Source of the DNA: an uncultured Chloroflexia bacterium
GTDB taxonomy: Bacteria; Chloroflexota; Limnocylindria; Limnocylindrales; CSP1-4
Direction of reading: 5' to 3'
NCBI GenBank assembly: GCA_963715295.1
Contig: CAVQRP010000007.1
Span: 37,330-101,329 of the forward strand
Length of the DNA stretch: 64,000 bases
Of the stretch, positions 5,004-62,389 are shown piece after piece (positions within the stretch are counted from its first letter, which is position 1; the number at the start of each line of letters is the position of its first letter). The notes under the pieces were generated by a model, which was given only the letters and a program-made list of their open reading frames with translations, searched no databases and was not told where the DNA came from. A program made the translations under genes and the position numbers.

Positions 5004-5078
5004 TGGTTGCGAGGGACGGATTCGAACCGCCGACCTTCGGGTTATGAGCCCGATGAGCTACCACTGCTCCACCTCGCC
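5004..5078 (-). tRNA. tRNA-Met (CAU), initiator-like
   Basis: 75-nt cloverleaf with anticodon loop CUCAUAA. Three G:C pairs close the anticodon stem, there is a 1:72 G-A mismatch, and CCA is encoded. About 85% identical to E. coli tRNA-fMet. Confidence 0.85.
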
Positions 5079-5969: not shown

Positions 5970-7949
5970 TCATGTCTGGCGCGACCGGGTGAGACCCTTC
6001 ACCTCCAATGGTGCGAAGCCATCGGCCAGCTCGAAGCCGAAGACCTGCGCGTAGAACGACAGCTCGGCTCCCAGCGCGCGTTGCTGGTTGGCCGCCTGGC
6101 GGAAGCCGTGGCCCTCGCCCTCGAAGAGGATGTAGGCGTGCGGCAGACCGTTCTTCTCCAGCGCCGCCACGATGCCCTCGGCCTGGGACGGCGGCACGAT
6201 CCTGTCGTCGGCGCCCTGCATCACCAGGACCGGGCAGGAGATCCGGTCGGCATGGTTGTTGGGGGAACGCTGACGATAGCGTTCTGCCTCCTCCGGGTAC
6301 GGTCCCAGGAGATAGCGGTCGTACTGCGACTCGAATTTGTGGGTCACCGCGGCGAATCCCTCCAGGTCACCCAGGCCATAGAACGACGTCCCGGCGGCGA
6401 AGACGTCCTTGAAGCACAACGTCGCCAGGGTGGTATAGCCGCCGGCGCTGCCGCCGCGGATGGCCATGCGCTTCTCGTCGGCCAGGCCACGCTCGGCCAG
6501 CCATGTGGCGACCGCGGAGCAGTCGTCTACGTCGACGATGCCCCAGTTCTCACGCAGCTGATCACGGAAGGCACGGCCGTAGCCGGTGGAGCCCCCGTAG
6601 TCGACGTCGACCACCGCGAAGCCACGGCTCGTGAAGGCCTGCTTCTCGAGGCTTAGCGACGTCCGGGCCTTGCTGGTGGGACCGCCGTGCGACATCACGA
6701 CCAGGGGTGGTCGCTCCCCGTCGGGCGCTGCCACGTCGCGGTTGGCCGGCGGGTAGTACCAGGCATAGGCGGTGCGATCACCCGACGTCGGGAACTCGAT
6801 GAGCTGCGGCGACGACAGGTAGGCAGCATCGACCTCGAGCTGACTGGCCTCGCGCAGGCGCGCCTCCTCGCCACTCCCAAGGTCGATGCGAACCAGCGCG
6901 GTGTGCCGCGTGGGGCTGCCGGCGATGGCAGTCAGCACCCCGTCACGCACGCGCAGGTAGGCCAGACCGGACTCGGCGAACTCGATCGCCCGTGGCGCCT
7001 GGCCGTCCGAAAGTGACACCAGGCTGGCGCCACCCGGGCCCGCTGGCGAAGGCGAGGATGCTGCCATCGCGGTCGATGTCGTAGTCGGACAGGCCGAAGA
7101 CCCACTGCGGACCGCCGATCTCCGCCTCCATCGGCGCCAGCGGCGGTGGCCTCCGAGGCGCCCTCACGCCAGCGATACAGGTTCCACCAGTCGCTGCGGT
7201 CGGAGACTGAAGAGCAGCGAGCCATCCGGAGCCCACGCGGCTGCAGGATCGACTCTTCAGCGCCGCCGGCGACGTGCGAGCGGCAGCGGCCAATGAGCCG
7301 TCGGCTGCGATCGTGGCGACCCATAGGTCCGTGCCATCCCAGGGCATGCGCGGGAAGTCCCACGTCAGCCAGGCCAGACGTGGAGCCGTCGGCGCTCAGG
7401 ACGGGGTCGGAGTAGAAGTCGTGGCCGCCGGCGAGCTCCACCAGCCCACGGCCGTCAACGGAGACCGCGACGAGCAGGTTGCGCGCCTTGAGTGGCCGAT
7501 CCGTGCTGGTCCTCGACCACCGCGATGACGCGCTCCGCGGGCGGCGTCGATGACCATGTCGGCGAAGCGCAGTGCCGGGTCGGTGACCAGCTCCTCGATG
7601 GCGGCGTCCGGCACTGCGCTTGAGCAGGAGCCGGTTGTCCTCGAACTCGGAGAAGACGATCACGCCATCGCGCACGGTGTAGGCGCCACCGCCGTACTCG
7701 TGGACGCGGGTGCGCACGTTGAGTCCGGGCGCCATGTCGGTGAACGTGCCGTCGGGCGTACGCCGCAGCAGCACGACGCGGCCGGACTCCTCGGGTCGCG
7801 ACTCGAGAAGGTAGATGTCGGCGCCATCGGGCCGTGGCTCGGACAGACCGCGCGCGGAGCCGACGGCCATGTCGACGCTGATCGGAGACGGCCAGGAGCC
7901 GTAGGGAAGTGTCTGCGAATGGCTCCATCGGGCGATGGTACGGCGCCAA
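5970..7949 (-). pseudogene. S9 family peptidase (acylaminoacyl-peptidase / prolyl oligopeptidase), interrupted by several frameshifts
   Basis: The C-terminal hydrolase domain is intact (5970..7067, GGSAGGY, catalytic Ser/Asp/His region). The N-terminal beta-propeller (LPYGSWPSPIS...) is spread over three frames. The N-terminal boundary is approximate. Confidence 0.7.
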
Positions 7950-25969: not shown

Positions 25970-26045
25970 TGGTGAGCCGGCTGGGATTCGAACCCAGGAC
26001 ACGAGGATTAAAAGTCCCCTGCTCTGACCGCTGAGCTACCGGCCC
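25970..26045 (-). tRNA. tRNA-Lys (UUU)
   Basis: 76-nt cloverleaf with anticodon loop CUUUUAA, T-loop TTCGAAT and encoded CCA. Confidence 0.9.
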
Positions 26046-50760: not shown

Positions 50761-51941
50761 ATGTTCCTGCTCATGAGCACACCTGCGGGGGTGTCCGAAG
50801 CGCATCCTGCCGACGGCTGTGCCGAGATGCGGGCCGAGGTCGGCCGGACCTGTCGCGAGGCGCACGAAGCCAGGGCCGCGCATGAGGCCGCCGCTGCCAA
50901 CACACACGAGCTGCGGCGGGAGCTCGTCGCCAGCCAGCACCGGCAAGCGGAGGCGGCTGTCGCGGCCGACCCCCAGTTCCGTAGCGCCGACAAGAAGGCC
51001 GCTCGTGACACCTACCAGCTGGCGCGATACGCGGCCCAGTCGGAAGACGAGATCCGCGAGGCCACGGCAGCCTGGGCCCAGGCCGTCGATCGCATCAACC
51101 GTGCCGGTCGACTGGCCCAGCGCGCGGCGGCGCAGGCCAAGGCTGCCGTCGCCAGCGTGGAATCATCGCTGCACGAGGCCGAGCAGGCGGAGCGAAGTGC
51201 GCGCATCACGGCCGAGCGGGCTGAAGGCGACTGCCTCGATGCTCGCGTTCGCCTGGCCGCGTGCGAGGAAGAAGCGGCCGCTCCGGCGGAGGCAGCCAGC
51301 GCGACCGTGTTCGAGCCGCACGCGGCTACCGGAGGCCACGCCATCGCCGTCAGCCCCACCGAGCGCATGTCACCCCTGGTCATCGAATTGATGGTCAGCG
51401 CCGACCGACGCGCGCTCGAGCTGGCGGCGAACGATGTCGCGGCACGCACCGGCTGCTCGCCGGCGGAGGCGCAGCTGCAGCTGCAGGAGCTGGTCGATGC
51501 CATCGTCTCGGCCGCGGCCGAGGAGGGCTTCCTCATCTTCGACAGCGACCATCGCTTCTGGGCCACGCTCACCTTCGAAGAGGCGCGCGATGTCATCGCC
51601 GCGCTGGCGCGGCTCGGCTTCAGCTTCGCCCCCAGCGAGGGCTGGTACGCGGGACGCGCGCCGGCGCCGGCGGACCTGTCGATGGCACTGGCCTACGCCG
51701 GACTGGACGCGCGCAACATGCGCGACCTGCCCGACAGCGAGGATCTGCGCCAGTTGCCCGGCTCCATCGGTGTCGATGGGCGAGCCTACCTCGCGGCCCG
51801 GGCACCATCCCTGGCCATGGACCAGCTGGTGAGCGCCCTGGGCGTCGCGCCGAGCCGCTCGAGCTGCTGTGGAACGAGTGGGGCCAGGTGCGTCCGGTGC
51901 TGTTGACCGACCGGCACGACCTCGGCAGCCTGCCCGGCTGA
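50761..51941 (+). CDS. Hypothetical Ala-rich coiled-coil protein (C-terminus probably frameshifted)
   Basis: About 390 aa with high GC3. The last ~40 aa likely continue in the frame of ORF 51261..51941. Confidence 0.45.
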
Positions 51942-51952
51942 GCTCGTCGAGA

Positions 51953-52698
51953 GGGTTCCGAGCCGCAGCTAGCGGAAGATCGACGACGGCGAAGTCTTCT
52001 CCAGCAGTGGCGCCGATGGCTGCGCCCGAGATGCGGGCGCGTTCACGCACCTCATCGGCCATGCGCTCGGGCTCGACCAGCTGGCTGGCATGGGCGGACA
52101 GTGCGCGCAGCTTGGCCGGCAGCGTCTCGCTGATGTCGACGACGACGTTGGGTTGGTCGCTCCAGAAGAGATACAAGCGGCCGACCCGGTGTGGCTGGAG
52201 CCCCTCCGCTATGACCAGGTGCGGAAAGGCCATGGGGTTGCGCGCGGCCGGGTAGACCGCGTCGATAGCGGCTGCACCGGCCGCACGATGGTCGACGTGG
52301 TTCACGCTGCCGTCCGGGTGGATCAGCACCCGCGGGTCAAGGGTGACGACGGCATCGGGAGCGAAGGTACGGATGATGCGCACGAGCTGCTCACGCAACG
52401 CCAGGTCGTTGGCGAGGGCACCATCGGGGCGATGCAAGAACGTCACCGCCTCGTAGCCGACGATGCCGGCAGCGGCACGCTGCTCTGCTTCGCGCATGGC
52501 GGCGACGGCCAGCGGGTCGGCTGACGCATCGTCGGCGCCGGCATCGCCGCTGGTACAACACACCAGCTGGGCCACACTACCCTCAGCGACCCAACGGGCC
52601 ACGCTGCCGGCGGCCGCGAAGTCAGCATCGTCAGGGTGCGCCACGATGACCAGCGGTCGCCGGGGCCGCTCGACATGGGCGCGAAGGTCGGCCGTCAT
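51953..52698 (-). CDS. PIG-L/LmbE family N-acetylglucosaminyl deacetylase
   Basis: PLVIVAHPDDADF and HVDHRAAG motifs. Start MTADLRAH. The 3' boundary is uncertain because the ORF runs on as antisense of the convergent gene. Confidence 0.65.
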
Positions 52699-52873
52699 CG
52701 AGCCCTGCGCGACGGGGCCGCGCAACCTGTCGTGGCGCCGCTGCGGAAACGAACACTAAAAAAGTGCTTGATTCCTGCGGCAGGCGCGCTATGCTCTCTC
52801 GATGGCGTCGCTCGTCTCCCCCCACGAGCGACGTCTTTTCCTGTCCCGGGGACTCCCGCGCCGACCCGCCGCA

Positions 52874-53365
52874 TCAGGCTGAGGCTGCCGAGCGGAGGGT
52901 CGCCAGGACCTCGGCGGCGTGGCCCTCCACCTTGACCCTGGGCCACACGTGCGCGACGCGGCCCTGGGGATCGATGAGGAACGTGCTGCGGCCGATGCCG
53001 AAGTACGTCTTGCCGTAGTTCTTCTTCTCGACCCAGACCCCGTACCGCTCTGCCACGGCATGATCAGGATCGGCCAGCAGGGGGAAGGTCAGCCCGTGCT
53101 CGGCCTTGAACCTGGCCTTGGAGTCGGCGTCGAGGACACTGACGGACCAGACCGTGGCCCCTGCGGCCTCGAAGTCGGATGTCAGGTCGCGGAACTCGCA
53201 GACCTCGGTGGTGCAGCCAGAGGTGAAGTCCTTGGGATAGAAGAACAGCACCACCCAGCGGCCGCGCTCGGCGGCCAGCTCGCGGACGGTGCCGGCGTCG
53301 TCGGTGAGCGAGAACGCCGGAGCAGGCTCGCCGACGGCGGGGAGGGTGGGAGCGTTATCGGTCAT
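52874..53365 (-). CDS. bcp: Peroxiredoxin Bcp (thiol peroxidase)
   Basis: FYPKDFTSGCTTE peroxidatic Cys motif, 163 aa. Confidence 0.85.
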   Translation of the reverse strand: MTDNAPTLPAVGEPAPAFSLTDDAGTVRELAAERGRWVVLFFYPKDFTSGCTTEVCEFRDLTSDFEAAGATVWSVSVLDADSKARFKAEHGLTFPLLADPDHAVAERYGVWVEKKNYGKTYFGIGRSTFLIDPQGRVAHVWPRVKVEGHAAEVLATLRSAASA

Positions 53366-53399
53366 GCACGGAAGGGTAGCGCTGTCGCGTCGCGGATGA

Positions 53400-54423
53400 C
53401 GTGGGCACTGCCCGGCTGCACGCTCAGTCCGGATCGGCTCCCCCGGCGCCGGGAGCTCGCCCTCGCGGGCTTCCACGTGGAGGCGGGGGGCATCGGGGAC
53501 GTCCACCACGAGCAGGACGTGATCGCCGCGGAAGCGTCGCGCGGATACGTGCCCCGCGATGGGACCGGCCGGATCGGCCACCAGGCCGGCGGGACGCAGC
53601 ACGACCAACACCTCTTCCCCGGTCCTGGTGGCGCGCGGGGCCGGATCGGCCACCTCGGCGGGCAGGTCACCCCAGGGCGTGTGCAGCACACGCTGGTCCA
53701 GCACACCCGACGTGATGTTGCGAAAGCCCAGGAAGCGGGCCGTCCACTCGTTGGGCGGTCGCGTCCAGAGCTCCTCGGGCGTGCCGTCGGCAAGGGTCCG
53801 CCCGGCTCGCAGCAGGACCACGCGGTCGGCCACCGACAGGGCCTCGTCCTGATCGTGGGTGACGTAGATGACCGTGAGGCCCAGCTCACGGAAGATCCTC
53901 GCAGCTCATCGGGCAGGCGCTCGCGCAGGGCCCGGTCGAGCGACCCCATGGGCTCGTCCAGCATCAACAGCCGCGGTCGCGGGGCCAGGGCGCGTGCCAG
54001 TGCCACCCGCTGCTGCTCGCCACCGGACAGCTGGGAGACCGGGCGCCGTTCAGCGCCGGACAGCCCCACCAGCTCGAGCAGCTCGGCTACCCGACGCCGG
54101 ACAGCCGCACCGCCCTCCCCTTGCATCCGTAGGCCGAAGGCGATGTTCTGGCCCACGTCCCGGTGCGGGAACAGGGCGTAGTCCTGGAACATCAGCCCGA
54201 CCCCACGCTCGTGTGGCGGCACTCCAGCCAGGTCGCGGCCGGCGAGCCGGATCGAGCCGCTGCGTGGCACCTCCAACCCGGCGACCACCCGTAGCAGCGT
54301 CGACTTGCCGCCGCCGCTGGGACCCAGCACGCACAGCAGCTCAGCGCTCGACACCGCCAGGCTGACGTCCTGCAGCACATCGACCTCGGCGTAACCGGCG
54401 CTCAGACCCTCGACCTCGAGCAT
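53400..54423 (-). pseudogene. ABC transporter ATP-binding protein (thiamine/Fe3+ importer type, TOBE C-domain), at least 2 frameshifts
   Basis: Walker A GPSGGGKST, LSGGEQQRVALARAL and LLMLDEP in frame 1. H-loop and TOBE regions are in frames 2/3. The 3' end is approximate. Confidence 0.7.
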
Positions 54424-54430
54424 GTGCCTC

Positions 54431-56128
54431 CTAGAACGGCTGTGGCCCGCTGCCGCGCAGGCGCTCGATGAGCAGGACCGCGGTCGCGGTGAGCAGCATC
54501 AGCACGACCGCCAGCGCCATGGCCGTGGCGAAGCTGGCGGCACCGGGCTGGCCCAGCAAACGGTAGATGGCCACAGGGATGGTGACGCTGTCGGGCCGCG
54601 CGATGAAGAGCGTGGCGCCGAACTCGCCCAGCGACACCGCGAAGGCGAAGCCGGCCCCGACCAGGGCGGCGCGGGCAAGGATGGGCCCATCGACCTCGCG
54701 CCAGGCTCGCGCCGGCGGCGCGCCCAGGACCGCCGCGGCCTCGCGCAGGCGGTCGTCGATGGAGCGGATGACGGGCACCACCGCGCGCAGCACGAAGGGC
54801 AAGGCGATGAGCGCGTGGGCGATGGGGATGAGCAGCACCGAGGTGCGCAGGTCCAGTGGCGGCGAGTCGAGCGAGACCAGGAAGCCGAAGCCGACGATGA
54901 CCGCCGACGTGCCCAGCGGCAGCATGATGAGAGCATCCAGCCCGCGCGCCAGCCAGCCGCGCCGGTAGCCCACCGCCGCCGCCGCGAGCAGGCCCAGCGT
55001 GCCGGCGATGAGCGTGGTGATGGCGGCGAAGGTGAGCGAATCGGCCACGGCCTGCAGCGGCGCAGCCGACAGGCGCAGGCGCGGATCGGCCTGCAGCAGG
55101 GCCGCGTATGCCCCGACGCCGTAGCCCCCGGGTCCGGCCAGCGAGCGCTCCAGCAGCATCAGCAGAGGCGTCAGCATGAAGACCAGCGTGGCGCCCAGGA
55201 TGAGCCAGACCACGTTGCGCTCGCGGCCGGGACGCGGCGGGCGAGCGGTCTCGGCCGAGGCGCGCAGACGCTGCTGGAACGCGAGGTGCTCCTGCGCGCG
55301 AGCGCTGCCGAGCAACAGCACGAAGACGCCCACCATCTGCAGGATGGTCAGCGCCGCTGCCGTGGGCAGGTCCAGCAGGATGGCCGTCTGGCGGTAGATC
55401 TCCACTTCCAGCGTGGTATCGCGCGGACCGCCCAGCAGCAGCACCACGCCGAAGGAGGTGACGGTGAACAGGAACACGATCGAGGCGGCCGAGATGACCG
55501 CCGGGCGCAGTAGCGGCCAGGTGACCTCGCGGAAGGCACGCCAACCGCTGGCACCCAGCATGCGCGCCGCCTCTTCCGTGCGTGGATCGACGTGCGCCCA
55601 TATGCCGCCGACGAGCCGGATGATGACCGAGACGTTGTAGAAGACATGCGCCACCAGGATGGCCCCGACCGATCCGTCGAGGCGCACCTGCGGGATGTCG
55701 GGCCCGAAGATGACCTCGGCCAGGGCGTTGACGGGGCTGCGGGGGCCCAGCAGCGCCAGGAAGGCGGAGCCGACCACGACCGTGGGCAGCACGAACGGCA
55801 CCACCGTCAATGCGCGCATGACACGCTTGCCGCGGAACTCGAAGCGAGCGAACACCCACGCCACCGGCAGCCCCAGCAGCAGCGTGAGCAGCGTGGAGAG
55901 GCTTGCCAGCGCCAGCGTGAAGATGACCGTGTCCAGCACGAACGGCTGCTGCCACGCCTCCACCAGGCCGCCGGGCGCGACGGCACCGTCGGGCGCGATG
56001 CCGAGCGCCAGGATGTTGGCCACCGGCCACAGGAAGAAGAGCCCCAGGAACGCCAGCGGCCCCAGCGCCAGCAGCAGGGCCCAGCGACGGCTCAGCGCAG
56101 GACGATGTCGGTCCACTCGCGGATCCAC
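54431..56128 (-). CDS. ABC transporter permease, fused two-domain (ThiP/FbpB type, ~12 TM)
   Basis: 565 aa with two MetI-like domains, each with an EAA-type loop. Confidence 0.85.
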   Translation of the reverse strand: MDPRVDRHRPALSRRWALLLALGPLAFLGLFFLWPVANILALGIAPDGAVAPGGLVEAWQQPFVLDTVIFTLALASLSTLLTLLLGLPVAWVFARFEFRGKRVMRALTVVPFVLPTVVVGSAFLALLGPRSPVNALAEVIFGPDIPQVRLDGSVGAILVAHVFYNVSVIIRLVGGIWAHVDPRTEEAARMLGASGWRAFREVTWPLLRPAVISAASIVFLFTVTSFGVVLLLGGPRDTTLEVEIYRQTAILLDLPTAAALTILQMVGVFVLLLGSARAQEHLAFQQRLRASAETARPPRPGRERNVVWLILGATLVFMLTPLLMLLERSLAGPGGYGVGAYAALLQADPRLRLSAAPLQAVADSLTFAAITTLIAGTLGLLAAAAVGYRRGWLARGLDALIMLPLGTSAVIVGFGFLVSLDSPPLDLRTSVLLIPIAHALIALPFVLRAVVPVIRSIDDRLREAAAVLGAPPARAWREVDGPILARAALVGAGFAFAVSLGEFGATLFIARPDSVTIPVAIYRLLGQPGAASFATAMALAVVLMLLTATAVLLIERLRGSGPQPF

Positions 56129-57141
56129 TCCTCGCGCCCGGCGTCGATGGCCGCAGGCTGGAGGCTCAAAGGCGCCGAGGGCACCAGCGCGTGCTGTTCG
56201 AAGACCTCCGGCAGGGCCACGTCGGACCGCGCCGGGTACACGTACATGGCCAGCGGCAGCTCGGCCTGCACCTCCGGCGACAGCAGGTAGTCGATCAGCG
56301 CAGCGGCCAGCTCCGGTTCTCTGGTGCCGCGCAGGATGCCGGCGAACTCGACCTGGCGAAAGCAGCCCGCGTCGATCGCCGCCGTCGGGGATTCGGTCGC
56401 ATCCGGGCCGGCCCCCAGGAATTCGGCGGCCGGACTGGAGGCATACGACACCACGATGGGCAGGTCGCCCTCGCCGGAGCCGCCGGAGAAGCGTGAGAAG
56501 TACGCCCCTTCCCAGTCGGCCGCAACCGCCACGTCGTTGGCACGCAGGTCGGCCCAGTACGCGGCCCAGCCGGTCTCGGGATCCTCGCCGAAGTGCGCCA
56601 CCGTCGCCAGCAGGAAGGCCAGGCCGGGTGACGAGGTCGCCGGATTCTCGACCACCAGCTGACCGGCCAGCGCCGGGTCGGCCAGGTCTTCCAGGCTCGT
56701 CGGAAGGGGCAGACCGTCCTCACCGAAGGCGGAACGATCGATGTTGAGACAGACATCGCCGAAGTCGATGGGCGTCACGCGGTGCTGCGGGTCCAGCTGC
56801 AGCTCGGGGGGCACGCTGGCCAGCGCCTCCGATCTATACGGCTCGAACAGGTCGGCCTCCAGGGCGCGTGAGAGGAAGGTGTTGTCGACGCCGTAAAGGA
56901 CGTCGGCCAGCGGCCGGTCGGCAGTGAGGATGGCCTGGTTGACGACGGCGCCGGCATCGCCCGCCGGCAGCAGCTTGACGTCAACGTCGTGTGCCGCCTC
57001 GAACGCCTCCATCACCCCGGGTGGCAGCAGGAACGAGTCGTGCGTCAGCAGCGTCAAGGTGCGCTCCTGTGCCGCCAGCGGTGAGGCGCTCAGCAGCACC
57101 AGCCCGGCGGCGAGCGTGGCGACGATGCGGGTGCGGATCAT
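56092..57141 (-). CDS. ABC transporter periplasmic substrate-binding protein (thiamine/Fe3+ family)
   Basis: Signal peptide and an SBP_bac_1 fold, 349 aa. Confidence 0.85.
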   Translation of the reverse strand: MIRTRIVATLAAGLVLLSASPLAAQERTLTLLTHDSFLLPPGVMEAFEAAHDVDVKLLPAGDAGAVVNQAILTADRPLADVLYGVDNTFLSRALEADLFEPYRSEALASVPPELQLDPQHRVTPIDFGDVCLNIDRSAFGEDGLPLPTSLEDLADPALAGQLVVENPATSSPGLAFLLATVAHFGEDPETGWAAYWADLRANDVAVAADWEGAYFSRFSGGSGEGDLPIVVSYASSPAAEFLGAGPDATESPTAAIDAGCFRQVEFAGILRGTREPELAAALIDYLLSPEVQAELPLAMYVYPARSDVALPEVFEQHALVPSAPLSLQPAAIDAGREEWIREWTDIVLR

Positions 57142-57836
57142 GCCTGGTCCTCCTGTCGCTCTGCGTTGCGGTCGGTGTGGACCAGCAAGAGTCGGCCACG
57201 TCGGCTGGACACCCGGGCGCTGCGCCCGAGCAGCTCATTGGAAAGGCCTCGCGATGGACCCAGGCTGAGGGTCTCGTCTCGGAGCGCGAAACGAAGCCCC
57301 TCGGTGCTGACGCCGGTCACGTTGCGGTCGAGCGCGAAGAGAGAGACGAAATCACCCGGCTGGCCCTCGATGCCTGCCTCGGCGGGGCCGTCGTGGCTGC
57401 CACTGCGCCAGATGCGCGAACCGTGCCCGGCGATGACCACCTCGACCCCGTCCAGGCGCGGATCGGCCAGCAGCAGCAGGTTGGCCAGACTGTGCTCGGG
57501 CCGCGTCTCGCCGAGGGCGCCCAGGATGGTGAGGCGATGGTGCCCAGCCTCGAGCGCCGTGAGCAGGCACAGCTCCATGTCGCTCTCGTCCTTGTCCGGC
57601 GACGCCACCCGCAACTCCACGCCCATCGATTCGAGCCGCGCACGGTCGGCGCTGCTCAACGAGTCGAAGTCGCCCACGACCACATCGGGAACGAGGCCGG
57701 CCTGGAGGACCCGCGCGGCGCCGCCATCGGCCGCGATCAGGCTGGGACTGGAACCGGCCCCGGCGACCAGCTCGGCGAGCAGCGCCTGGTCCACGTCACC
57801 GTCGGCGATGATCAACGCGTGAGTGGGCCTGGCCAT
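57138..57836 (-). CDS. Thiamine pyrophosphokinase
   Basis: ALIIADGD ... VVVGDFDS TPK catalytic motifs. First gene downstream of the TPP riboswitch. Confidence 0.8.
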   Translation of the reverse strand: MARPTHALIIADGDVDQALLAELVAGAGSSPSLIAADGGAARVLQAGLVPDVVVGDFDSLSSADRARLESMGVELRVASPDKDESDMELCLLTALEAGHHRLTILGALGETRPEHSLANLLLLADPRLDGVEVVIAGHGSRIWRSGSHDGPAEAGIEGQPGDFVSLFALDRNVTGVSTEGLRFALRDETLSLGPSRGLSNELLGRSARVSSRRGRLLLVHTDRNAERQEDQA

Positions 57837-57878
57837 GGACGTCGAAGCCTCCGTCTGGACGGGACGGAGGCTGCGTCA

Positions 57879-57966
57879 TCGACTCCCTTCGCCGGTACGA
57901 ACCGGATCAGGTTCCGAGGGTCTGCGGCTGTCCCGCACTCTCAGCGCCGCGAGGGCGCTCCCCTGT
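57879..57966 (-). promoter_or_regulatory. TPP (thiamine pyrophosphate) riboswitch, THI-box aptamer
   Basis: Minus-strand RNA: GGGGAGCGCCC...CUGAGA...ACCCUCGGAACCUGAUCCGGUUCGUACCGGCGAAGGGA. It is followed by the hairpin GCCUCCGUC-ccgucca-GACGGAGGC (57847..57871), which sequesters the SD GGAGG 11 nt before the AUG. Confidence 0.85.
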
Positions 57967-58037
57967 CCCATCTGTGGTTGTATCGAGGATGCTACACCAC
58001 GGGCCGAGCAGGCCCGATGTCATAGACTCCGGGTGCC

Positions 58038-58580
58038 ATGCCCGACCCCGCCCATCCAGCCCACCAACGCGTCATCGACGCGGCCCGCCAACGCGGTGTC
58101 GAGATCGAGATCGTCACGTTCGACGAGTCCACGCACACCGCCCAGGAAGCGGCCGCTGCCATCGGCGTGCAGCTGGGCCAGATCGTCAAGAGCCTGGTCT
58201 TCATGGCGCCCATCGATCCCGCTCGCGACGATGGCGAGCAGGAGCCGGTCATCGCCCTGGTGCGCGGCTCCGACCGAGTGGACATCGCCAAGCTGGCCAC
58301 CGTCAGCGCCCGACCGCGCATGCGCCGGGCCAACGCCGACGAGGCCAACGCGGCCACCGGCTTCGCCATCGGCGGCATCCCGCCCTTCGGTCACCGCCGG
58401 CGCATCGCCGTGGTGATGGATCCCGCCCTCGATGGCTACGAGGAGGTGTGGGCCGCGGCCGGCACCGCGACAGCCGTCTTCGCCATCGCGCCCGCCACGC
58501 TGGCGATGCTGTCCGATGCCCTCGTCGCACCCTGCGCCGAGGAACCGGCGGCGGCCGACCCAGGCGCGAGCCCGTCGTGA
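58038..58580 (+). CDS. YbaK/ProX-type aminoacyl-tRNA deacylase domain protein (second copy)
   Basis: YbaK fold (KSLVFMA, GFAIGGIPPFGH). Confidence 0.8.
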   Translation: MPDPAHPAHQRVIDAARQRGVEIEIVTFDESTHTAQEAAAAIGVQLGQIVKSLVFMAPIDPARDDGEQEPVIALVRGSDRVDIAKLATVSARPRMRRANADEANAATGFAIGGIPPFGHRRRIAVVMDPALDGYEEVWAAAGTATAVFAIAPATLAMLSDALVAPCAEEPAAADPGASPS

Positions 58581-60456: not shown

Positions 60457-62389
60457 TTGACTTGCCAGCATGATGAATCACCCGCCGCCTCCACCTCGCT
60501 ACCCATCACCAAGGCCGCCCGCCTGCTTGGTGTGCACCCCAATACCCTGCGTGCGTGGGCCGATGAGGGGCGCGTGCGCTGCTTGCGCGTCAACAGCCGC
60601 GGCGATCGACGTTTCCTCGTCGACGACCTGCGGGCCTTCATGGCGGCCAGGGAGAACGCGCCCTCGCCCCAGGATCGATCGCGAAGCCCAGATCGAATCC
60701 ATCGCCAAGCTGGGCACTCGGCTCAACCATCTGAGCAGCGTGACCGAGATCGGTGCAGCCATCTGCCTGGAGCTGCGCCAGCTCATCGAATATCACAACG
60801 TGCGCGTCTACCGCGTCGAGGGCAAGGAGGTCGTGCCGGTCGCCTGGCGCGGTGAGCTCAGCGCCTACACCGGCGAGGACGGGGAGCAGCTGCGGCTGCG
60901 CGTGGGTGAGGGCATCACCGGCTGGGTCGCCGAGCACGGTGTGGCCCAGTACCTGCCTGATGCCGCGCGTGATGCCCGTGGCGCCCAGGTGCCCGGTACC
61001 GAGGCGGACCTGCCTGAGTCCATGCTGGTGGCGCCCATGACCTACGAGGACGAGACGATCGGCGTCATCGTCCTGTCCAAGCTGGGACTCGACCGGTTCG
61101 CGCCCGATGACCTGCGCTACCTGGGCATCTACGCCGCCATCGCCGCCCAGGCCATGGTCAACGCCGACATCAGTGAACGGCTGCAGGCGCAGGCGGGCGC
61201 GCTCGACCGGCAGCTGCGCAGCCAGGCCGAGCTGCTGCGCGTCACCGAACGGATCCTCACCAACCTGGATCCGGCCGCCGTGGTGGCAGAGATCGCCGAC
61301 AGCCTGGCGGGACTCATCCCGGTGGACACGCTCGGTATCTACGTGCACGAGCCGGCGCAGCGCAGACTGACCCCGCTGCTCGCGCGGGGCGTGGGAGCGA
61401 CAGAGTTCATGGCGCGACGCCTGCCCGACTCGGGTGCGGTGGTGTCGGAGGTGCTGGCCACGGGAGAGGCTCGCAGCGTCAGCCGCGGTGGTCGCGGCAG
61501 CCGCAGTGGCGTCAAGCCGGCGGCACTCATCCTGGCGCCCTTGCGCGGGCGGGAGCGAGCGCTCGGGATCCTGCACCTCAAGCGCCTCGGTGAAGGCGCC
61601 GTCTTCGATCCACGCGAGCTGGACCTGGTGCGTCTGTTCGCGGCTCACGTATCGATCGCGCTGCAGAACGCGCTCGTCCATCGGATGGTCGAGCTGCGCG
61701 CACAGACCGACGCACTGACCGGGCTGCGGAACCAGGGCACCTTCCGCGATGACCTGCTGCTGAGCGTGGCTCGCGGACAGCCCTTCGCACTGCTCATGCT
61801 CGACCTCGACGACTTCAAGTCCTACAACGACCGTCACGGGCACGAGGCCGGCAACGCCCTGCTGAAGGACATCGCCAGGGCCATCGGGGGAGCCTGCCGT
61901 GAGACCGACCGCGTCTACCGCTACGGCGGCGACGAGTTCTGCCTGATCCTGCCAAGGACGTCCGTGGACGCTGCCGTCGACGTGGCCGAGCGCGTCCGCG
62001 GCGCCATCCGCGAGGTGCCCGGCAGCGGCGGCTCTGAGGCTCGATTGCGCTGCTCGATCGGCGTCGCCGCCTATCCCGACGACGCCGTCGATCGCGAGGA
62101 GCTGCTGCTGGCGGCCGACCGCGCGCTCTACGCTGCCAAGCGTGCCGGCCGCGACCGGGTCGGCACCGCTGCAGATGGGCTGGCGTTGGCGGCCGAGTTC
62201 GTGCCCCCCCGCACACCGGTCGACGGTCCCGATCCCGAGGCGCTGGCAGCGGGAGCAGCACCTGCCGTGGCGCTGGCGGAGGCCACTCTAAATGCCAACG
62301 GGCCCATCAGCGATGCCGTCGGGCAGGTGGCGGCATCGGCGGTGGCGGAGGCATCCCTGGTGGCGGAGGTGTCGGGCGCACGATCGTGA
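60457..62389 (+). pseudogene. Diguanylate cyclase: MerR-type HTH + two GAF domains + GGDEF; one frameshift near 60670
   Basis: HTH ITKAARLLGVHPNTLRAWADEGRV in frame A. GAF, GAF and GGDEF (RYGGDEFCLIL, active GG(D/E)EF) in frame B (60470..62389). Confidence 0.7.

Follow-up and report, generated by a model that had tools for sequence, protein, structure and literature searches.

Is the leader in front of the thiamine pyrophosphokinase gene of this Chloroflexota contig a TPP riboswitch, at which level would such a switch act, and which of the genes behind it does it serve? The locus lies on the minus strand of a stretch of DNA of 64,000 nucleotides, here called the window. An initial annotation, read from the letters, proposed a TPP aptamer followed by a hairpin that hides the Shine-Dalgarno (SD) sequence of a thiamine pyrophosphokinase (TPK) gene, with a thiamine ABC importer encoded downstream. 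For comparison, one genome per species was scanned with a TPK alignment, which yielded 80 loci, nearly all from Chloroflexota MAGs. The leaders of 24 of these (hairpin-type, Limnocylindria-like) were aligned with that of the window using MAFFT, and counts over 25 leaders refer to this alignment.

Aptamer and operon

A search of the window against Rfam 15 (cmscan) gave a single riboswitch match, to the TPP family RF00059, at 57974..57867 on the minus strand. At 70.9 bits (E = 6.1e-12) it exceeds the gathering score of 54.3, and it spans model positions 1-105, full length and untruncated. The motifs from which the riboswitch had first been called (GGGGAGCGCCC, CUGAGA at 57944..57939, ACCC and GAACCUGAUCCGGUUCGUACCGGCGAAGGGA) were all found on the minus strand when 58200..57700 was inspected. 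The aptamer and the element upstream of it are as follows:

57881..57967, minus strand: TPP aptamer core from P1 to P1 (RF00059 match), holding P2, P3, P3a, P4, P5, CUGAGA and ACCUGAUC...GCGAAGGGA
57989..57998, minus strand: putative (extended) -10 promoter, the conserved GGTGTAnnAT, invariant in 12 close relatives with diverging flanks

Helices P2, P3, P3a, P4 and P5 are canonical throughout in the covariance-model alignment, which upholds the annotated folding of P2-P5 around the conserved motifs. Across the 25 leaders these helices are 98-100% paired, with compensatory changes in P3 (GC to AU in 3 sequences) and in P5 (CG to UA in 8 sequences). The two conserved motifs of the ligand pocket, CUGAGA (J3/2) and ACCUGAUC...GCG.AGGGA (P4/P5 arm), align to the consensus and are invariant in all 25. 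P1 is short: it has three canonical pairs only, between GAC (57967..57965) and GUC (57883..57881), both invariant in the leader alignment, and the outer two pairs of the model are flagged as non-canonical by cmscan. That the element is a genuine TPP riboswitch we regard as close to certain.

The GGTGTAnnAT motif lies about 20 nt upstream of the aptamer and is probably a -10 or extended -10 promoter element. A scan for sigma-70 consensus promoters found no promoter, so that the assignment is drawn from the conservation of the motif, the sole hint at hand; transcription is predicted to start near 57982, about 13 nt before the aptamer. On the opposite strand (region 58017..58040), TAGACT (58023..58028, plus strand) is conserved in relatives and stands 9 nt before the ATG (58038) of a divergent YbaK-like tRNA-editing gene. 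Its position suggests that the mRNA of the YbaK-like gene may have a very short leader or none.

Five genes follow the leader on the minus strand:

57138..57836, minus strand: thiamine diphosphokinase (TPK/ThiN), 232 aa, AUG at 57836; TIGR01378, 132.7 bits (cutoff 76.4)
56092..57141, minus strand: thiamine-type ABC substrate-binding protein (SBP), 349 aa; TIGR01254, 235.3 bits (cutoff 93.4)
54431..56128, minus strand: fused two-domain ABC permease of ThiP-like architecture, up to 565 aa; two BPD_transp_1 domains
53357..54423, minus strand: ABC ATPase with a TOBE_2 C-terminus; ABC_tran at aa 17-159, frame switch at 53896
52874..53365, minus strand: Bcp-type peroxiredoxin (AhpC/TSA); PF00578, 128 bits; last gene on the strand before a hairpin

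TPK carries both its catalytic domain and its B1-binding domain (PF04263, 83.4 bits; PF04265, 38.3 bits). Its Met1 is invariant in 26 homologues, and homologues are named Chloroflexota or Candidatus Limnocylindrales. The SBP stays under the cutoff of the strict ThiB equivalog TIGR01276 (106 vs 317). The permease, annotated at first as a fused protein with 12 transmembrane segments, indeed has about 12 hydrophobic segments in its hydropathy profile along with its two transport domains; it aligns end to end with ThiP models at scores far under their cutoffs (e.g., 163.9 vs 679). The ATPase reaches 126-128 bits against ThiQ models with cutoffs of 245-298, and neither protein attains the ThiP or ThiQ equivalog level. 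The architecture of the cassette is thus ThiBPQ-like, and thiamine is its likely substrate, given the family to which the SBP belongs and the presence of a riboswitch and a TPK gene.

Profile matches bear out the annotated order of TPK, SBP, fused permease and ATPase, with the qualification that the ATPase frame is broken. Homology of the ATPase ends at aa 175, and TOBE_2 lies in another frame: a 1-nt frameshift at 53896 leaves Walker A to the D-loop in one frame and the H-loop and TOBE_2 in another. The intact ATPase of L004 maps accordingly, with aa 1-176 on 54423..53896 and aa 177-356 on 53896..53357 in a different frame. L001, the closest of the relatives (88% DNA identity over 5.6 kb), and other long-read-style MAGs have single-base indels scattered over several genes; because similar indels occur in these assemblies, an assembly error is likelier than a pseudogene. 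The broken frame could also be taken to mean that a decayed, non-functional riboswitch stands before a decaying operon. This reading we consider extremely improbable, since the aptamer, the hairpin described below and the genes for TPK, SBP and permease are undamaged and well conserved among many relatives, and the scattered indels point to the assemblies.

The genes are tightly packed. AGGAGG precedes the ATGA in which TPK and SBP overlap, and permease and ATPase meet in TAGGAGGCACATG; such junctions are consistent with one transcript and would allow translational coupling. The bcp gene may be co-transcribed with the operon. In the window, the C-terminal part of the ATPase runs into Bcp (Met at 53365) without a stop codon (53420..53300 and ORF 53833..52874, minus strand), as it does in L001. 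A conserved ATPase-Bcp fusion was considered and rejected: in L004 a stop codon intervenes and the frame is another, and L003-L009 likewise vary in frame. About 40 nt past the bcp stop codon there is a perfect 10-bp hairpin, CGTCGCTCGT ... ACGAGCGACG (52833..52806, minus strand), which has no U tract and may mark the end of the operon.

The Shine-Dalgarno hairpin and its proposed alternative helix

The region between aptamer and TPK holds a hairpin, an SD sequence within it, and strands that can pair in more than one way:

57873..57880, minus strand: linker; pairs with the spacer between SD and AUG in the window, lengthening the sequestering stem
57846..57872, minus strand: SD-sequestering hairpin, 10-bp stem AGCCUCCGUC / GACGGAGGCU with a 7-nt loop CCGUCCA (folding and RNAalifold)
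57848..57852, minus strand: Shine-Dalgarno GGAGG, part of the hairpin 3' arm; 11 nt lie between it and the AUG at 57836
57960..57969, minus strand: 5' strand of the proposed anti-sequestering helix, GGGACAGGGG; overlaps the P1 and P2 5' strands and pairs with 57870..57861
57861..57870, minus strand: 3' strand of the proposed anti-sequestering helix, CCUCCGUCCC; anti-SD plus the first bases of the hairpin loop

The initial annotation placed a perfect 9-bp hairpin straight after the aptamer, with GGAGG in its 3' arm. The hairpin itself holds: its core, GCCUCCGUC (57871..57863) with GACGGAGGC (57855..57847), has no mismatch and grows to 10 bp with one more A-U pair, its 5' arm is the anti-SD, and GGAGG lies 11 nt before the AUG, a rather long spacing. 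Its placement needs correction, as the P1 3' strand GUC and a 9-nt linker (GAUGACGCA) separate aptamer and hairpin. The hairpin folds at -18.7 kcal/mol (z -5.5), a value equalled by none of 200 shuffles.

The hairpin is conserved across the aligned leaders. Its stem is 95.5% paired in the 25 leaders, GGAGG is invariant in all of them, and the two outer pairs covary (GC 8, AU 6, CG 4 and GU 3 at one; AU 12, GC 6 and GU 3 at the other). Taken together, aptamer and hairpin have 98.3% of cells paired in the alignment, and an RNAalifold consensus of the 25 leaders independently gives both. In the window, pairing of the linker with the spacer lengthens the hairpin into an irregular stem of 16 pairs (57880..57838) at -25.3 kcal/mol (z -5.1). 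The linker-spacer columns are 68.5% paired in relatives vs 35-48% when the partners are slid.

The initial annotation had suggested folding the leader in search of an anti-sequester helix that excludes the hairpin, and such a helix was found. Pairing of its strands, GGGACAGGGG and CCUCCGUCCC, excludes both the aptamer and the SD hairpin: the first strand is made up of two G ahead of P1 and the 5' strands of P1 and P2, and the second takes up the anti-SD and the beginning of the loop. Over the 25 sequences the helix is 97.3% paired, vs 44-66% with the partner slid by 1-3 columns. Compensatory changes give CGGAC/GUCCG in L032 and CAGGAC/GUCCUG in L058; genuine compensatory events are scarce, with 3 cells at 2 pairs, and both strands are also conserved for other reasons, as parts of the aptamer core and of the anti-SD. 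The GG ahead of P1 and the CC of the loop are dispensable for aptamer and hairpin alike and yet are conserved, and it is at these positions that the compensatory changes fall. One extra pair of the helix holds in 16 of the 25 sequences; a three-pair extension (GAU/GUC), which forms in the window, was rejected as it is not conserved past this first pair.

For a transcript that ends ahead of the SD arm, the MFE fold is predicted to contain the anti-sequestering helix in 24 of the 25 sequences, with mean pair probabilities of 0.54-1.0, and the sole exception is a misaligned row. At equilibrium, the full leader without ligand has the SD paired throughout (P(unpaired) 0.0); the ON state would therefore have to be co-transcriptional, that is, kinetic. 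The unconstrained MFE fold (-72.1 kcal/mol) is a non-aptamer fold below both modelled states. It misses the aptamer junction and always keeps the SD hairpin; it was discarded as evidence on the switch, and constrained and truncated folds were used in its place. For a 166-nt construct, the aptamer with the hairpin comes to -64.3 kcal/mol and the anti-sequestering state to -62.0 kcal/mol, ligand energy excluded. In the alignment construct, likewise without ligand energy, the ON vs OFF difference is +0.8 kcal/mol for the window and -7 to +7 for the relatives. According to these models the two conformers would be nearly isoenergetic before ligand energy is added.

We lean towards the view that the anti-sequestering helix operates in the switch as proposed. 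The leader might instead be a thermodynamic post-transcriptional switch that reaches its ON state by other pairings or by breathing of the hairpin, the GGGAC/GUCCC match being a by-product of conserved purine-rich and pyrimidine-rich strands. The small number of compensatory events fits this, as does the outcome of forcing the SD to be single-stranded: the MFE fold then retains the full helix in 12 of the 25 sequences, a portion in 4 and nothing of it in 9. A full-length ensemble with no measurable SD accessibility, however, leaves little room for an ON state that is purely thermodynamic; the GG ahead of P1 and the loop CC have no role in aptamer or hairpin, yet they stay conserved and change in concert; and folds of truncated transcripts favour the helix. 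We judge a switch of this thermodynamic kind unlikely.

The same hairpin might be thought to act on transcription. Terminators without a U tract have been proposed for high-GC bacteria, and the hairpin could be mainly a TPP-dependent intrinsic terminator of that sort, with SD sequestration incidental. Its stem is GC-rich and very stable (-18.7 to -25.3 kcal/mol), a few relatives have U-rich tails (UUUUG in L003, UUUUGUCUU in L012), and U-tract terminators do follow the TPP aptamer upstream of TPK in other Chloroflexota (L035, L055 and L077, described below). Yet a terminator scan found no terminator-like site in the leader, where the hairpin is followed by UUCGACGUCC, a tail with no U tract. 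Moreover, in 25 of 25 leaders it is the SD that forms the 3' arm, close to the start codon and at a constant distance from it, which is the arrangement expected of translational control, and the analogous stem of E. coli thiB gave no termination in vitro (PMC10578472). Termination as the main role of the hairpin appears improbable to us.

The annotated reading, translational OFF control rather than termination, is the one best supported. It is favoured because the SD always lies in the 3' arm of a conserved, covarying hairpin, because no terminator-like site was found, because the mutually exclusive anti-sequestering helix is conserved, and because the characterised E. coli thiB riboswitch works likewise (PMC10578472). 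We thus consider it quite probable that the leader of this thiamine-salvage operon contains a TPP riboswitch acting as a translational OFF switch.

From these observations we infer how the switch would respond to its ligand. With TPP bound, the aptamer would be locked in P1-P5 and resist invasion, leaving the anti-SD strand CCUCCGUC free to pair with GACGGAGG and the linker free to pair with the spacer. A stem of 10-16 bp would then enclose GGAGG and the region up to -3 of the AUG, keeping the ribosome off TPK. At low TPP, the weak 3-bp P1 and the P2 5' strand (GGGACAGGGG) would be captured by CCUCCGUCCC once the latter is transcribed; this anti-sequestering helix would leave the emerging SD arm single-stranded, and translation could start. 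The downstream genes would follow through the overlapping or abutting stop and start signals (translational coupling), perhaps with a contribution from polarity.

Riboswitches and transporter cassettes in related loci

In 38 of the 80 loci TPK is directly preceded by a THI-box (regex, nhmmer and Rfam); the aptamers of L037 and L063 were found by nhmmer and Rfam, not by regex. Eleven loci without a THI-box gave no Rfam match at all. Gene content around TPK, determined by tblastn with the window proteins, could be evaluated in 77 of the 80 loci, the other three being cut by contig ends, and falls into three types:

27 loci: TPK with a thiBPQ-like ABC cassette (and bcp); riboswitch in all
10 loci: TPK with a ykoE/ykoD/ykoC-type ECF cassette (and bcp); riboswitch in all
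40 loci: TPK followed directly by bcp, or with neither cassette nor bcp; riboswitch in none

All 37 loci that have a transporter cassette thus carry a riboswitch, none of the 40 that lack one does, and no evaluable locus is discordant. The ECF type (L018, L023, L032, L037, L041, L049, L050, L058, L063 and L068) comprises a PF09819 protein, a double ABC_tran protein and CbiQ (e.g., L049:6675-9453), placed in the slot between TPK and bcp. In a neighbour-joining tree of TPK the three locus types form a handful of clades, so that the association over 77 loci reflects perhaps half a dozen independent transitions. The association supports the annotated idea that uptake and phosphorylation of thiamine are jointly under TPP feedback. 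As a practical conclusion, the purpose of the switch is to control import, and TPK comes under it as the leading gene.

In most of the loci without a riboswitch (L013, L020, L022 and about 37 more) bcp comes right after TPK, both on one strand, with TPK at about 6001-6600 and bcp about 85-120 nt downstream. Where a riboswitch is present, the transporter cassette sits between the two genes. No functional link between TPK and Bcp was found.

Expression platforms differ among the riboswitch-bearing loci, and two further kinds occur beside the hairpin type:

L021:2018-2168, L024:5897-6047, L025:5898-6047 and L042:5898-6047: compact leaders without a hairpin
L035:5751-5923, L055:5762-5916 and L077:5690-5840: terminator-type leaders of non-Limnocylindria Chloroflexota, with a GC-rich hairpin and a U tract after the aptamer

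In the four compact leaders a UUG start codon lies about 10 nt after the aptamer, and the only SD-like sequence, AAGGGAG, is the 3' end of the aptamer itself (P4/P1 3' side); in these, sequestration of the SD would be direct, by the aptamer. Among the terminator-type leaders, L077 has a weak aptamer (nhmmer 25.6 bits, under the Rfam gathering score), with GUAGGCA in place of GUAGGGA; judged by eye, it is probably a divergent TPP aptamer followed by a terminator. The window leader is of neither the compact nor the U-tract terminator type.

These patterns can be combined into a broader reading, which we offer tentatively, as a possibility short of an expectation. In Limnocylindria-like Chloroflexota, TPK and bcp would form a modular slot in which riboswitch and cassette are gained and lost in lock-step, the orthologous leader would carry at least three expression platforms, and the hairpin type would owe its ON state to kinetics alone, its full-length RNA being thermodynamically OFF whether or not ligand is there.

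Known TPP switches and the wider neighbourhood

Several elements of this system have counterparts elsewhere. The riboswitch of E. coli thiM is the classical case of a TPP switch that sequesters the SD, by way of anti-SD and anti-anti-SD elements (Winkler et al. 2002). The window leader resembles it in being an SD-sequestering TPP switch; it differs in that thiM regulates a thiazole kinase and biosynthesis genes, and the sequence of the expression platform is different. THI-element control of ykoEDC was reportedly described by Rodionov et al. in 2002. Like Bacillus ykoFEDC, ten of the related loci carry ykoE/ykoD/ykoC-type genes, here behind the riboswitch-TPK unit, whereas the cassette of the window is thiBPQ-like and Bacillus uses a transcription terminator.

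The closest parallel in mechanism is the E. coli thiB (tbpA) riboswitch upstream of thiBPQ, which has an RBS-sequestering stem and a transient antisequestering stem overlapping P1, and which controls translation, its stem not terminating transcription in vitro (PMC10578472). Both systems share a TPP aptamer, a linker, an RBS-sequestering stem and a nascent antisequestering stem that overlaps P1, and both precede a binding-protein-dependent thiamine ABC importer. In contrast to thiB, the first gene here is TPK rather than the binding protein. The aptamer-side strand also differs: here it is the P1/P2 5' strand, which pairs with the anti-SD and the loop, while in thiB the key strand is the linker after P1. 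Further differences are the 3-bp P1 and the host, a high-GC Chloroflexota MAG in which the switch is known from its sequence.

Joint control of transport and phosphorylation also has a precedent. Bacteroides TPP riboswitches control pnuT-tnr3 and OMthi-pnuT-tnr3, and act on translation in B. thetaiotaomicron (bioRxiv 10.1101/867226). There, as in the window, one TPP riboswitch stands over a thiamine transporter and a thiamine pyrophosphokinase; in Bacteroides, however, the transporters are PnuT and a TonB-dependent receptor and TPK comes last, whereas here an ABC importer is used, TPK comes first and the phylum is another. Within the Chloroflexi, a RegPrecise survey lists TPP-regulated thiamine transporters in thiamine-auxotrophic members (PMC3766115). 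A literature search on Limnocylindria and thiamine found nothing relevant.

Both the mechanism and the logic of controlling a transporter together with TPK are thus already known, and what is new lies in differences of detail and in the lineage. The window example leaves the knowledge of TPP riboswitches itself unchanged. It adds a well-supported case from uncultured, poorly studied Limnocylindria-like Chloroflexota of soil and freshwater, and supports the view that these bacteria rely on regulated scavenging of thiamine. The 25 leaders, together with the compact and terminator variants on orthologous operons, are possible natural test material for the evolution of expression platforms around a fixed aptamer.

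Two neighbouring genes are unrelated to thiamine: a GAF-GAF-GGDEF diguanylate cyclase is encoded at 60470..62389 (plus strand) and a PIG-L family deacetylase (BshB/MshB-like) at 51370..52725 (minus strand). The Rfam scan also identified two tRNA genes in the window, both on the minus strand, at 25973..26045 (68.5 bits) and 5007..5078 (64.3 bits).
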